64,000 nt of DNA from Burkholderiales bacterium (lineage in GTDB: Bacteria; Pseudomonadota; Gammaproteobacteria; Burkholderiales; SG8-41): positions 5,343 to 69,342 of the forward strand of contig JAYQOT010000003.1 of NCBI GenBank assembly GCA_038144955.1, read 5' to 3'. Positions within the stretch are counted from its first letter, which is position 1, and each line of letters opens with the position of its first letter. Under the pieces are notes generated by a model, which saw nothing but the letters and a program-made list of their open reading frames with translations, did no database searches and was not told the origin of the DNA. The translations under genes were made by a program, and so were the position numbers. Positions 35,525 to 39,136 of the stretch are shown here, piece by piece.

Positions 35525-36472
35525 TCAGGGCATTGCCAGGTGATCGAAAACCAGCGTTTTTGCGGTCTTGCGGGTGAAATCCATGAATCCCTGGGCGATA
35601 ACCGGCAATTGCTTGCCTACTGGGTAGGCAAAGACCCAGTTGCGCTCGACCGGCAGACCGTCAACGTCCAGCACGGCCAGTTTCTCATGTGACATGTCCA
35701 GGCCCAGCGTGTAACGGGACATGATCGACACGCCGAGCCCGGCGATGATGGCTTGTTTGATGGCTTCGTTGGTGGACAACTCCATTCGTATATCGGGCTT
35801 GCACCCATGTTCCTGGAATACCTTGCTGGCAATCATGCGTGTGCCGGAGCCGGGTTCCCTCATCAGGAACGGCTCTTCGGCGAAACGTGCGAACGGAATT
35901 CCTTTTTCTTTGGCGAGAGGGTGTTCAGCATGGGCATAGGCCACCATCGGATTCGGGAGTATGACCTGGGTTACCACGTCGATGTCATCAGGAGGGCTGG
36001 CGAATATGTACAAGTCATCCATGTTCAGGGTCATGCGCTCGATAAGGGTGGCCCTGTTGTGGATCTGCAACGACACCTCGATATCGGGATGCTGTTTGAC
36101 GAATTCGGCCAGTACGCGGGGCGCAAAGTACTTTCCGGTGGTGCTGACCGCAAGTTGCAGTCTTCCGCTCTTCATGCCACGCAGATTGTCCAGCTCACGG
36201 CTGGTTCCAGTCAGTACATCGAAGATTTCCGTGCAGGATTCATGCAGAACGCGACCGGCGTCGGTCAGGTGTATGCGTTTGCCGATCTGTTCGGTCAGCG
36301 GCATCCCTACCGTCTCACTGAGTTTTTTCATTTGAACCGATACCGTAGGCTGTGCCATGTAGAGTTCTTCGGCGGCTTTGGTATAGCTGCCCAGTCGGGC
36401 AACGGCTTCGAAGACGGAGAGTTGCGGCAGCAGGCCATGCTTGATGAAGCGGCGGATGTTTGCCTGAGACAT
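35525..36472 (-). CDS. LysR-family transcriptional regulator (CbbR-like sequence)
   Basis: HTH LPQLSVFEAVARLGSYTKAAEELYMAQPTVSVQMKKLSE plus a LysR substrate-binding domain. Start at ATG 36472 preceded by AAAGGAAC. Confidence 0.9.
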   Translation of the reverse strand: MSQANIRRFIKHGLLPQLSVFEAVARLGSYTKAAEELYMAQPTVSVQMKKLSETVGMPLTEQIGKRIHLTDAGRVLHESCTEIFDVLTGTSRELDNLRGMKSGRLQLAVSTTGKYFAPRVLAEFVKQHPDIEVSLQIHNRATLIERMTLNMDDLYIFASPPDDIDVVTQVILPNPMVAYAHAEHPLAKEKGIPFARFAEEPFLMREPGSGTRMIASKVFQEHGCKPDIRMELSTNEAIKQAIIAGLGVSIMSRYTLGLDMSHEKLAVLDVDGLPVERNWVFAYPVGKQLPVIAQGFMDFTRKTAKTLVFDHLAMP

Positions 36473-36572
36473 GTTGTTCCTTTCGTTACGAGCTAAATTG
36501 TCCACCGCACCCTCCGCAAATGCGGAAGGCGCGACCTTCACCTCGAATGGACGACAGCCGGTTTACGGCCAT

Positions 36573-36722
36573 AAAAAAAGACCTCGCCCATTCAGGCAAA
36601 GGTCTCGCTCGCAACGACAGGACCTGGGTATGTCGGACTGCCAGCCACCCCGGGAACAAGCATAGTTCCGAATTGACGAGACGGCTAACGCCGGTTTCCC
36701 GGCTGAGCTACTCCCCTTTGGA
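36573..36722 (-). promoter_or_regulatory. yybP-ykoY (Mn2+) riboswitch-like leader with overlapping intrinsic terminator
   Basis: Minus-strand RNA reads CAAAGGGGAGUAGCUCAGCCGGGAAACCGGC..GUCUCGUCAAUUCGGAAC..GUUCC..CGACAUACC..GCGAGCGAGACCUUUG. Conserved L1 block GGGGAGUAGC, GUCGUCAAU block and 3' GAGACC are present, and P1 is CAAAGG/CCUUUG. The terminator AGACCUUUGCC-UGAAU-GGGCGAGGUCU plus U7 (36573-36605) shares the ACCUUUG strand with P1. Confidence 0.75.
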
Positions 36723-37082
36723 GGGAGCGCGCATAAATAAATATGCGCACCTGAGTATTAAAGCATGCCATTTGTGTCATGGCAAGTCGTAAAGGTTTTT
36801 GGTCCGCGCTGGCATTGATATTACAAAAAGTAATCAAAAGCATTTTTGGATGGCATGAAAACCCGCCGGGTAGCCTGCTCCTGGCCCTTCGAATCTTCCA
36901 TTTTTATGTGCATTACATTTTCTGATTAGTCGTATTGCGAGTTATCTGAAATTTTGTGATGAGTAATGCTGAAGATTGCAAACTTTCATTTCACTTCTGA
37001 TGTCGACGTGTTGATAATTCGGCCGTGCGCAGTAGCAGGCGCATGCAGTCGCGAGAGGTTGTTCGAGTGACTGCGGTTGTTG

Positions 37083-37223
37083 CCGGGGGAGTAGCTTCAG
37101 CGGCGCAGGCAGAAATTGCGTCGTCAGCGGTGCGGTCGTCAATACGGGTAATACCCGGTCGCACCGGCAGCCTTCAGTGGTGCAAGCGAGACCAGGTTGC
37201 GGGCACGCGGAAACGCGGCGTGC
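37083..37223 (+). promoter_or_regulatory. yybP-ykoY (Mn2+) riboswitch-like leader upstream of the TerC-family gene
   Basis: CCGGGGGAGUAGCUUCAG..GGUGCGGUCGUCAAUACGGGUAAUACCCGGUCGCACC..GCAAGCGAGACCAGG carries the same three conserved blocks as the minus-strand copy. P1 is weaker (CCGG/CC-A-GG) and the last hairpin is shorter. It is followed by the hairpin GCACGC..GCGUGC. The genomic context (TerC family) is canonical. Confidence 0.6.
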
Positions 37224-37252
37224 AATTTGATCTCTTACTTGAAGGAGGAAGC

Positions 37253-38530
37253 ATGGAGTTACTTTCAACTGAGTTTCTTTCCGCCCTGCTGGCCATTGTC
37301 ATCATCGACCTTGTTCTGGCCGGCGACAATGCCATCGTCATTGCGCTGGCGGCGCGGAACCTGCCTGATAATCTGCGTAAGAAGGCGATCATCTGGGGTA
37401 CCTTCGGTGCTATTGCAGTGCGTACCGTGATGACGCTGGCCGTGGTCTGGCTGCTGAAGATTCCCGGATTGTTGCTGGCTGGCGGGGCGTTACTGGTGTG
37501 GATTGCCTACAAGCTGCTGGCCGACAACGATGGTTCCCACCACGAGGTCAGTGCCGCCGGCAATTTCTGGGGCGCCATGAAAACCATCGTGGTTGCAGAT
37601 GCCGTGATGGGGCTGGACAACGTGCTGGCTGTTGCCGGCGCGGCGCACGGCAGCTTCCTGCTGGTGGTAATCGGTTTGCTGATCAGCATCCCGATCGTGA
37701 TCTGGGGCAGCACGCTGATTCTTCATTACGTCGAACGCTTTCCCTCCATCGTTTATATCGGTGGCGGCGTGCTGGCGTGGACATCTGCCAAGATGATGGT
37801 CAGCGAGCCATTGGTCAAAGATTACCTTGCCGCCAGCGGTTTTCCGGTGGTGTTGATCTATGCCATCGTCATGCTGGGCGTTCTGGGTGCCGGTTTCTGG
37901 GTGAACCATGCCCGTGCCCGTGCCCGAGTGGCGGCGCATCTGGTCGATCTTGCCGCCACACCCGAAGTAAATTCCGTTTCAACTCATTCAGCTGTTCCTG
38001 CCAACCTGCAAGGAGGTGTCAAAATGGTCAAGATTCTCATTCCGGTAGATGGTGGCGCAAATGCGCTGAACTCGGTGCGTCATGTGGTCAACCGCTTCCT
38101 TGCCAACCCTGCCATGGAAGTGCACCTGCTGCATGTGCGCGAGCCGCTTTCTCAACACATTGCCCGTTTTGTCAGCCGTCGTGACCGTGAGGCATTTCAC
38201 CGGGCAGAGGCCGAGCGTGCACTGCAACCGGCGCGTGACCTCCTCAATCGCTTCGGGGTGCCGCACGCTGACCATATCGAGCTTGGGGACAAGGCGACAA
38301 CGATCCACCGTGTTGCGCAGCGCCTGCGTGTTACCCAGATCGTAATGGGCACAGCACGCAAGAATTCGCTCACCCGCATGCTTGAAGACTCGGTCACCAA
38401 CAAGGTGCTTGAACTGGCGCAGGTTCCGGTGGAGGTGGTGGCTGGGCAATCCGTATCGAAGCTGGAAAAGATCGGCGTACCGGCCGGAGTAGGGGCGGCC
38501 ATGGCATTACTGATTGTAGCGGTGGATTGA
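37253..38530 (+). CDS. TerC/YjbE-family membrane protein fused to a C-terminal universal stress protein (UspA) domain
   Basis: N-terminal about 235 aa has the paired DLVLAGDNAIVIA and MGLDNVLAVAG TerC motifs. The C-terminal about 150 aa (KILIPVDGGANALNSVRHVV...IVMGTARKNSLTRMLEDSVTNKVLELAQVPVEVV) is a USP fold, followed by a final hydrophobic segment. RBS GAAGGAGG precedes ATG 37253. Confidence 0.85.
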   Translation: MELLSTEFLSALLAIVIIDLVLAGDNAIVIALAARNLPDNLRKKAIIWGTFGAIAVRTVMTLAVVWLLKIPGLLLAGGALLVWIAYKLLADNDGSHHEVSAAGNFWGAMKTIVVADAVMGLDNVLAVAGAAHGSFLLVVIGLLISIPIVIWGSTLILHYVERFPSIVYIGGGVLAWTSAKMMVSEPLVKDYLAASGFPVVLIYAIVMLGVLGAGFWVNHARARARVAAHLVDLAATPEVNSVSTHSAVPANLQGGVKMVKILIPVDGGANALNSVRHVVNRFLANPAMEVHLLHVREPLSQHIARFVSRRDREAFHRAEAERALQPARDLLNRFGVPHADHIELGDKATTIHRVAQRLRVTQIVMGTARKNSLTRMLEDSVTNKVLELAQVPVEVVAGQSVSKLEKIGVPAGVGAAMALLIVAVD

Positions 38531-38587: not shown

Positions 38588-39136
38588 TCAGAATTTAGGC
38601 TTGCGTGTAGCCTGCTGGTAACCGGAAACCCCGGCAAGAATTTCCTTCTTGGCTTCGTCGGGTCCGACCCAGCCCACGACCTTGACCCATTTCCCGGGTT
38701 CCAGGTCCTTGTAATGTTCGAAGAAGTGCGCGATTTGCGCCAGAGTGCCTGCGGGCAGGTCGCCGGGCGTTCGTATGGCGGAATATAGCGGGGTCAGTTT
38801 GTCGATGGGTACGGCCAGTATTTTGGTGTCGTCGCCCGCCTCATCTTCCATTTTCAGCATTCCCACGGGTCGGCAACGTACCACCACCCCCGTGATCAGA
38901 GGTACTGGAGACAGTACCAGTACGTCCACCGGATCTCCGTCTCCCGACAGGGTATGCGGTACATATCCGTAATTGCAAGGGTAGTGCATGGCGGTCGACA
39001 TGAAACGGTCGACGAACATCGCGCCGGTGCTTTTTTCCATTTCATACTTGATCGGCTCGGCATGCATCGGAATCTCGATGATGACGTTGACGTCGTTGGG
39101 TACGTCATTGCCTGAGCTGACACGATCCAGATTCAC
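38588..39136 (-). CDS. ppa: inorganic pyrophosphatase (soluble, family I)
   Basis: 182 aa with VIIEIP...KYE, the [23 protein letters not shown] signature and [10 protein letters not shown]. Confidence 0.95.

Follow-up and report, generated by a model that had tools for sequence, protein, structure and literature searches.

What do two oppositely oriented riboswitch-like leaders do in one intergenic spacer, when one stands before a regulator gene and the other before a membrane protein gene? The question is raised by a 64-kb stretch of DNA (the window) from an uncultured betaproteobacterium (Burkholderiales; assembly GCA_038144955.1, contig JAYQOT010000003.1), in which a 780-bp spacer (36473-37252) separates a LysR-family regulator gene on the minus strand from a TerC-USP fusion gene on the plus strand; these gene calls agreed with those of a preliminary description of the same DNA. 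Judged by their homology to validated members, a covarying four-way junction and invariant L1 and L3 nucleotides, both leader RNAs belong to the yybP-ykoY (Mn2+) riboswitch class. We infer the ligand, Mn2+, from class membership alone. The minus copy is predicted to control the LysR-family gene through a terminator, and the plus copy probably acts on translation initiation of TerC-USP.

A covariance model (R2) was built from 14 sequences, none of them from the window's clade and E. coli mntP and alx included, and both strands of all 64 kb were searched with it, filters being off. Two sites were matched, one on the minus strand (36722-36595) at 77.7 bits (E 1e-18) and one on the plus strand (37080-37199) at 54.1 bits (E 3e-12), and so the riboswitch-like copy that the preliminary description had placed on each strand of the spacer was recovered at both sites by an independent model. 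No further significant site was given by R2 in the 64 kb, the third-ranked match having 11 bits (E ~1). Another model (R1), made from 16 minus-strand copies only, recovered with filters off E. coli alx (46.1 bits) and mntP (32.5 bits), and also the TerC leaders of Cupriavidus, Pigmentiphaga and Bacillus-type genomes and the plus copy of the window (56.3 bits).

The minus aptamer was folded by RNAalifold from 16 orthologs into P1.1/L1/P1.2, P2, P3.1/L3/P3.2 and P4 around a four-way junction, and the same junction was predicted independently for the plus aptamer from 13 orthologs. In the minus set 97.4% of cells were paired versus 35-48% in slid controls, where the 3' pairing partners had been shifted (compensatory pairs 14/32); in the plus set 97.2% were paired versus 31-48%, with seven compensatory pairs versus 0-4 in controls, falling in P2, P3.1 and outer P1.1. 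L1 (GGGGAGUAG...GAGACC) and L3 (UCGUCAAU) were invariant in both ortholog alignments. The equivalent of adenosine A41 of the L. lactis construct would be the first A of UCAAU in L3. In the solved structure this adenosine contacts Mn through N7 (PMC11672702).

Blocks shared by the two copies had been reported before, and as inverted repeats they stood: GGGGAGTAGCT (37086-37096 in the plus copy, 36706-36716 in the minus copy), TCGTCAAT (37136-37143 and 36672-36679) and GC(A/G)AGCGAGACC (37181-37193 and 36601-36613). The exception was GUCGUCAAU, which is exact in the plus copy only; the minus copy has CUCGUCAAU at this place, and the truly common block is UCGUCAAU.

When GTDB species representatives were scanned with the TerC-USP protein, 80 loci (L-numbers) were obtained. 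The divergent aptamer pair, both members of which show compensatory changes, was kept in 13 species-level genomes of Burkholderiales (the window, L002, L003, L005-L012, L044 and L045; hereafter the clade). The plus copy, whose presence in relatives the preliminary description had made a test of its proposal, was thus found in 13 genomes. Within each of the 13 loci the two copies were 54-61% identical to each other, versus 63-79% between orthologs. Since paralog identity lies below ortholog identity at every locus, the pair is older than the clade, and the copies are, on this comparison, old and separately conserved paralogs. These identities and the confinement of the similarity to the core bear out the earlier view that aptamer positions are under selection and that the pair is no recent duplication. 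The copies do not form a tandem on one transcript: they lie on opposite strands, 357 nt apart, each behind its own outward-facing promoter. About 20 more distant TerC-USP loci have the LysR-side switch only and no plus copy. The linkage of aptamer and LysR gene extends over ~34 loci (species-level Burkholderiales genomes), the platform changing between terminator and sequestration of the Shine-Dalgarno (SD) sequence.

Conserved promoters are predicted upstream of both aptamers, which places both aptamers in 5' leaders; as the promoters face outward and lie ~230 bp apart, the two RNAs would not overlap. The gene behind the plus copy codes for a membrane protein of Mn homeostasis (TerC), as is expected of the class, and the gene behind the minus copy for a LysR-family regulator. 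The minus promoter (Table 1) was predicted from conserved columns of the spacer alignment (A3), in which its -35 element is TTGTCA in most orthologs, and is not called by a consensus promoter scan. It is followed by a 5' stem-loop whose pairing is maintained with differing sequences in orthologs (it covaries), and then by CUCCCUCC, which is complementary to GGGGAG of L1. In the minimum free energy (MFE) fold, CCCUCC directly 5' of the minus aptamer (36717-36728, ...GCUCCCUCCAAAGGGGAG...) was seen to pair with this GGGGAG; the CCCUCC is conserved in the clade and occurs also in Pigmentiphaga TerC leaders. By this pairing the ligand-free state may be locked a second time.

The canonical terminator ascribed to the minus copy was confirmed, a hairpin at 36580-36604 followed by U7 being called by the terminator scan and formed in the MFE fold, with an imperfect stem of ~9 bp. 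Its 5' arm is the 3' strand of P1.1 (GACCUUUG / GACCUUUGCC), and the minus copy is, as modelled, a standard Mn-ON antitermination design. The hairpin was kept in 13 orthologs, with a degenerate U-tract in four of them (L008, L009, L010 and L012). Beyond the U-tract lies a conserved block complementary to the entire hairpin (Table 1), and RNAalifold (A4) gave an alternative long-range helix of 22 bp between this block and the terminator region (36580-36604). Across 13 orthologs 97.2% of its cells were paired versus 34-47% when slid, with four compensatory pairs versus 0-1 in controls; two of the four occur in the window, and one falls within the loop of the terminator, where it is dispensable for the terminator itself. 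The predicted helix is possible only in read-through RNA. A comparable second hairpin, with a 3' arm matching the 5' arm of the first terminator, was seen in the Bacillus-type TerC leaders L058 and L077.

Relatives with other arrangements bear on the target of the minus copy. A distance of 33-39 nt separates aptamer and LysR ATG in L017, L020 and L029, where GCAAAGG of the SD can pair with CCUUUGC; these three are predicted to be simple translational ON platforms, with which folding agrees for L020 and L029. In five other loci (L025, L027, L037, L041 and L042) the gene after the minus-type aptamer encodes a LysR HTH_1 domain only (106-126 aa), and TerC-USP has no riboswitch of its own; in three of these (L037, L041 and L042) the start region of the gene is complementary to the P1 3' strand. 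The terminator that overlaps P1.1, the SD pairing in L017, L020 and L029 and the complementarity of the start region in HTH-only homologs argue that the minus riboswitch controls the LysR-family gene. In the loci with an HTH-only regulator, sensing may have passed to the RNA.

The plus copy differs in its platform. A weaker P1 had been noted and is present (GCCgGG / CCaGGU, with a G.A mismatch); P1.1 reads CC-R-GG / CC-R-GG, with a purine-purine mismatch, in 12/13 orthologs. The GC-rich hairpin with a poor U-tract that had been described after the aptamer was likewise found, followed by UUUGAUCUC only. As an intrinsic terminator this hairpin was rejected: it is not called by the scan, and its tail is UUUGAUCUC or GAUGGUUAAC in the two sub-clades. 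The difference in expression platforms seen in the preliminary description, only the minus copy having a terminator, therefore stands.

In place of a terminator the plus leader can form a long anti-aptamer hairpin, which was present in the unconstrained or P1-open MFE structure of 13/13 orthologs (-24 to -38 kcal/mol). GAGAC-CRGGUU pairs with AAUUUG-AUCUC, and in the L008 sub-clade GCGAG-ACCA pairs with UGGU-CUCGC. As the hairpin uses the 3' strand of L1/P1.1, it excludes closure of P1; both platforms thus compete with the P1.1 3' strand, the minus one by the terminator and the plus one by this hairpin. The 3' end of the hairpin lies 6-18 nt from the SD and can also pair with its GGAG. The complementarity of CCUUCAGU (37171-37178) to ACUUGAAGG (37237-37245), on which translational control had been suggested, held for the window (unconstrained MFE) and for L005 and L007 and failed in the L002 and L008 sub-clades; as a general switch helix this pairing of P4 loop and SD flank was rejected as lineage-specific. 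The P1.1 3' strand (CC-R-GGNN) is complementary to NNC-AUGG at the start codon in 12/13 orthologs, and RNAalifold gave a helix of six pairs, three fixed by coding or aptamer constraints and 1-2 covarying between sub-clades; we keep this helix as something that may form, and not as a finding.

From these folds the plus copy probably acts on translation initiation. By family precedent its direction is probably ON, with a minority chance of OFF. Rho-dependent polarity has been described for E. coli mntP (PMC11647493), and the translational output of the plus copy is perhaps combined with it in the same way.

LysR-type regulators commonly bind the spacer shared with a divergent target gene. Two inverted repeats in the spacer are candidate operators (Table 1), and the one abutting the plus -35 occurs as GTAAT-N7-ATT(G/A)C in 10/13 clade members, the window included. 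That the half-site GTAAT/ATTAC serves as operator throughout was rejected, since distant loci lack it and have an ATC-N9-GAT-type box. Judged from these repeats, the LysR protein probably binds the spacer and regulates TerC-USP and itself.

The locus would then consist of two back-to-back transcription units, each with its own sigma-70 promoter and a yybP-ykoY riboswitch as its first element. Along the leftward unit the order would be promoter, 5' stem-loop, aptamer, terminator and LysR-family gene. Mn2+ would lock the docking of L1 and L3 and P1.1 would close, the terminator would be prevented and the polymerase would enter the LysR gene (ON); in the read-through RNA the downstream block would be free to pair with the whole terminator region. 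The rightward unit would run from promoter through aptamer to the TerC(YjbE)-USP gene without a terminator; its mismatch-weakened P1.1 would compete with the strong anti-aptamer hairpin, and Mn2+ would remodel the translation initiation region. Mn2+ would thus reach TerC-USP twice, through its own leader and through the riboswitch-gated LysR protein, in a feed-forward arrangement. The route through LysR would hold in all ~34 loci, and the direct riboswitch on TerC-USP only in the window's clade. We regard this account as a whole (two divergent units, a Mn-ON minus copy on LysR, a translational plus copy on TerC-USP and a feed-forward circuit through LysR) as likely. A wider proposal is more tentative, and we would lean slightly against it: that a Mn riboswitch was recruited as the sensor for a LysR regulator controlling TerC-USP, that in HTH-only lineages, where the protein has lost its effector-binding domain, the RNA is the sole ligand sensor, and that in the clade the target gained a same-class switch of its own, possibly an OFF switch, giving an RNA-protein feed-forward loop driven by one ion.

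Several points weigh against the account; they concern recognition by Rfam, the operators, the direction of the plus switch and the ligand. At its gathering threshold (45 bits) the Rfam model RF00080 matched neither copy and nothing in the whole window. At E<=10 it matched nothing on 1 kb, and on stretches of 181-201 nt the minus copy reached 7.3 bits and the plus copy went unmatched. The check by RF00080 that the preliminary description had proposed was thus formally failed by both copies, and controls, which took in L001:2462-2558, L057, L059 and L061, showed the model to be insensitive. The validated E. coli mntP scored 41.6 bits, under the gathering score; canonical TerC leaders from Pigmentiphaga, Ramlibacter and Hydrogenophaga (L057, L059 and L061) were unmatched at E<=1; a Bacillus-type leader (L058) reached 26.7 bits and the minus copy of one relative 21.5 bits. 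In the aligned output the consensus of RF00080 is without the closing P1/GAGACC strand. Because the model puts mntP under its threshold and misses canonical TerC leaders, its failure on both copies is uninformative; given the aptamers that it missed, annotation of Mn riboswitches is probably incomplete in GC-rich betaproteobacteria. The best Rfam match to 36573-36720 of the window was RF02617, SSRC10 ('Streptococcus sRNA 10'), whose consensus (GGGAGUAGC ... CGUCAAUACG ... AGCGAGACC and a terminator) resembles a yybP-ykoY riboswitch filed as a small RNA (sRNA). As for the operators, the ATC-N9-GAT-type LysR-type transcriptional regulator (LTTR) box occurs 1-3 times per spacer in distant loci, and its perfect matches (1.36 versus 0.01 per kb elsewhere) were counted with a motif defined by eye from the same spacers; the window carries only the diverged GTAAT/ATTGC form.

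The direction of the plus switch was folded with the 3' part only, P1 open or closed, and scored as the probability that the SD is unpaired. The mean fell from 0.53 (open) to 0.29 (closed), being lower in 11/13 orthologs, with no effect in L006 and L009. The 3' end of the hairpin moreover doubles as an anti-SD, which gives a three-element layout (P1 3' strand / anti-SD / SD) usual in OFF switches. The plus riboswitch might accordingly be Mn-OFF: closure of P1 would free the anti-SD GAUCUC (CUCGCAUCC in the L008 sub-clade) for pairing with GGAG of the SD, so that less TerC-USP would be translated, and without Mn2+ the hairpin would hold the anti-SD and leave the SD free; with a Mn-ON LysR this would make an incoherent feed-forward loop. 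The layout recurs in both sub-clades from different sequences, and the folding test gave the opposite, ON-type result for two-element leaders (L059, L061, L072, L020 and L029). We nevertheless consider Mn-OFF unlikely, if a serious contender, for the anti-SD/SD helices have just 4-6 bp with G-U pairs, the freed AU-rich strand before the SD could equally be a ribosome standby site and so turn translation ON, and every characterised yybP-ykoY member is ON, TerC leaders included (PMC8632737, PMC11672702). For E. coli alx, an ON switch by experiment, the test likewise showed an OFF-type trend; as it mis-scores alx, the trend in SD accessibility is indecisive for the polarity of the plus copy. Results for SD and AUG accessibility in the full leader were inconsistent, and a thermodynamic call of ON or OFF from them was dropped after alx had been mis-scored. 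It is improbable, in our view, that one or both aptamers sense another signal, such as Ca2+, another divalent ion, or alkaline pH by way of transcription kinetics. Some family members do respond so: the mgtA member of S. pneumoniae to Ca2+ in vitro (PMC6649816), and alx and the E. coli and B. subtilis motifs to alkaline pH (PMC8632737); the USP domain on the transporter also hints at a wider stress role. The Mn-site nucleotides are, however, intact in both copies, and the associated TerC subfamily is among the known Mn-riboswitch-linked ones.

A strong terminator 100 nt ahead of the LysR ATG, and an sRNA family as best Rfam match, would also fit a minus copy that is an orphan aptamer or a stand-alone terminated sRNA of the kind of streptococcal SSRC10, the LysR gene having a separate promoter downstream of the terminator; ~100 nt of conserved leader past the terminator could conceal such a promoter. 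The promoter scan, however, found no minus-strand promoter within 36473-36573, and the post-terminator block, complementary to the terminator, is hence part of the same RNA. L017, L020 and L029 are without an intervening terminator and have the LysR SD paired directly to the P1 3' strand, HTH-only homologs are directly abutted by the aptamer, and the linkage of aptamer and LysR persists in ~34 loci despite changing platforms; we hold a stand-alone sRNA to be quite improbable. Least credible is that the plus copy has lost its function and is decaying as a relic, TerC-USP being under the LysR protein alone. The mismatch in P1.1, the want of a canonical expression platform and the ~20 more distant TerC-USP loci without any plus copy would suit a relic. 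Against it stand the L1/L3 core nucleotides, all invariant across 13 species, the compensatory changes in P2, P3.1 and outer P1.1, the 54 bits with an independent model, and the anti-aptamer hairpin kept over the 3' strand in both sub-clades from different sequences; P1.1 of E. coli mntP is likewise mismatched.

To our knowledge, the gene on which a riboswitch acts is nearly always the next one downstream, for an enzyme or transporter, and transcription-factor targets are rare. Targets of the yybP-ykoY class given in reviews are MntP, TerC/Alx/YkoY, YybP and P-type ATPases; in the searchable literature we found no link of the class to a LysR-family or other regulator gene, and no divergent pair of same-class riboswitches. 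The plus copy resembles the E. coli alx and B. subtilis ykoY leaders in aptamer class and in having a TerC membrane protein as target, and alx and mntP in its non-terminator platform. It differs from alx and ykoY in its TerC-USP fusion target, the conserved purine-purine mismatch in P1.1, the long anti-aptamer hairpin ending by the SD and the divergent, riboswitch-controlled LysR neighbour. The minus copy shares with the transcriptional ON switches B. subtilis yybP and L. lactis yoaB a terminator whose 5' arm is the P1.1 3' strand; in these, ligand-stabilised P1.1 prevents termination (PMC8632737). Unlike them, it precedes a LysR-family regulator and not a transporter or membrane protein gene, and it is followed by a block that can re-pair with the terminator.

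A riboswitch before a regulator gene has a precedent in the Vc2 cyclic di-GMP riboswitch upstream of tfoY in Vibrio cholerae, which gates a regulatory protein (10.1101/617340, PMC7371385) and is reported as OFF. There too the ligand signal is relayed onward, but ligand class, RNA family and regulator family differ, and Vc2 has no second switch of its class on a neighbouring target of the regulator. The class and the TerC target being known, and Vc2-tfoY being on record, the arrangement is not categorically new. With tandem riboswitches it has in common two same-class sensors at one locus shaping the response to one ligand; here, in contrast, they are on opposite strands and in separate transcripts, and any cooperation must run via the LysR protein. 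A classical LysR-type regulator and its divergently transcribed target are matched by the gene pair and by a putative operator in the spacer, an inverted repeat or box of T-N11-A type that would overlap the target's -35; unlike the classical case, synthesis of the regulator is predicted to be gated by a metal riboswitch, and the effector-binding domain is missing in several relatives, where sensing seems to have moved from protein to RNA. If LysR controls TerC-USP, the locus would be a natural relay from riboswitch to transcription factor that extends a metal-riboswitch regulon past its cis targets, the HTH-only relatives would be cases of a ligand-sensing protein domain functionally replaced by an RNA sensor, and the clade would offer a feed-forward circuit with two same-class switches on different platforms for the study of thresholds and dynamics.

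Table 1. Features of the divergent locus in the window, and a further aptamer of relatives (promoters, operators and hairpins are predicted)
Feature	Position	Strand	Details
LysR-family regulator gene	35525-36472	-	315 aa; Pfam HTH_1 + LysR_substrate
LysR ribosome-binding region	36472-36483	-	SD AAAGGAA 36477-36483; ATG 36472-36470
Post-terminator block	36533-36559	-	GGCUGUCGUCCAUUCGAGGUGAAGGUC; complementary to entire terminator hairpin; 15-40 nt beyond U-tract
Intrinsic terminator	36573-36604	-	hairpin GACCUU(U)GCC-UGAAUG-GGCGAGGUC 36580-36604; U7 36573-36579
Minus-strand yybP-ykoY (Mn) aptamer	36595-36722	-	RNA UCCAAAGGGGAGUAGCUC to GCGAGCGAGACCUUUGCC; R2 77.7 bits, R1 112.9 bits
5' stem-loop	36729-36748	-	GCGCAUA-UUUAUU-UAUGCGC, then CUCCCUCC; direct reading, MFE fold
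LysR-leader promoter, predicted	36757-36785	-	-35 TTGCCA 36780-36785; 17-nt spacer; TGn-extended -10 TTTAAT 36757-36762
Inverted repeat, candidate LysR operator half-site pair	36820-36834		ATTAC-N5-GTAAT; kept in long-spacer orthologs
Inverted repeat, candidate LysR operator	36963-36979		GTAAT-N7-ATTGC; abuts plus -35; 10/13 clade members
TerC-USP leader sigma-70 promoter, predicted	36990-37018	+	TTCACT-17-GATAAT; scan 9/12 matches; kept in 13 orthologs
Plus-strand yybP-ykoY (Mn) aptamer	37080-37199	+	RNA UUGCCGGGGGAGUAGCUUC to GCAAGCGAGACCAGGUUG; R2 54.1 bits, R1 56.3 bits
Anti-aptamer hairpin	37188-37234	+	GAGAC-CAGGUUGCGGGCACGCG-GAAA-CGCGGCGUGCAAUUUG-AUCUC; 5' arm = aptamer L1/P1.1 3' strand
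TerC-USP translation start region	37237-37255	+	ACUUGAAGG; SD GGAGGA 37244-37249; ATG 37253
TerC-USP fusion gene	37253-38530	+	425 aa; Pfam TerC 14-184 + Usp 260-396
Third aptamer, relatives	L002:4389-4487, L003:4481-4579, L044:4508-4606, L008:4556-4654, L009:4601-4699	+	
Third aptamer, relatives	L010:4437-4534, L012:4549-4647, L004:1506-1604, L074:860-958	+	

The product of the regulator gene has both the N-terminal HTH_1 domain (PF00126, E 3e-18) and the C-terminal substrate-binding domain (PF03466, E 3e-48). It fits no named NCBIfam subfamily, the top match being a distant one to CbbR (233 bits vs a cutoff of 450). By tblastn, LysR orthologs 67-80% identical were found at the same position in 13 loci; their alignments begin at residue 1, and ..ACGAAAGGAC..AUG before the gene is kept in 13 orthologs. 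A start at the in-frame GTG 36541 was rejected, since the intervening stretch is a sequence-variable hairpin and orthologs align from the ATG.

The TerC domain of TerC-USP was assigned to NCBIfam TIGR03717, R_switched_YjbE (227 bits vs a cutoff of 134.8), one of three TerC subfamilies (YjbE/YkoY/Alx) named after their riboswitch association. The closest matches to the protein in the GTDB scan were 78-79% identical at the protein level. The GGAGGA SD lies 4 nt before the ATG at 37253. In a 501-aa open reading frame (ORF) running from GTG 37025 through the plus riboswitch, the N-terminal extension is an artefact, and homologs align from the M at 37253. The TerC-USP fusion is kept in many metagenome-assembled genomes of Burkholderiales; Cupriavidus, Pigmentiphaga and Bacillus-type homologs match the TerC part only.

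Just downstream of TerC-USP, relatives carry a third yybP-ykoY aptamer (Table 1), before an Alx/YkoY-type TerC gene of ~320 aa; in the window R2 found no third site across 64 kb. Directly after TerC-USP in L008 (4217-4297, plus strand) there is a sub-threshold anti-hemB-like, terminator-like element, and the flanking DNA of L042 (4391-4487, plus strand) holds a bacterial small signal recognition particle RNA (65.8 bits, over threshold). In the window, the ORF that comes after TerC-USP (38588-39136, minus strand) is inorganic-pyrophosphatase-like.

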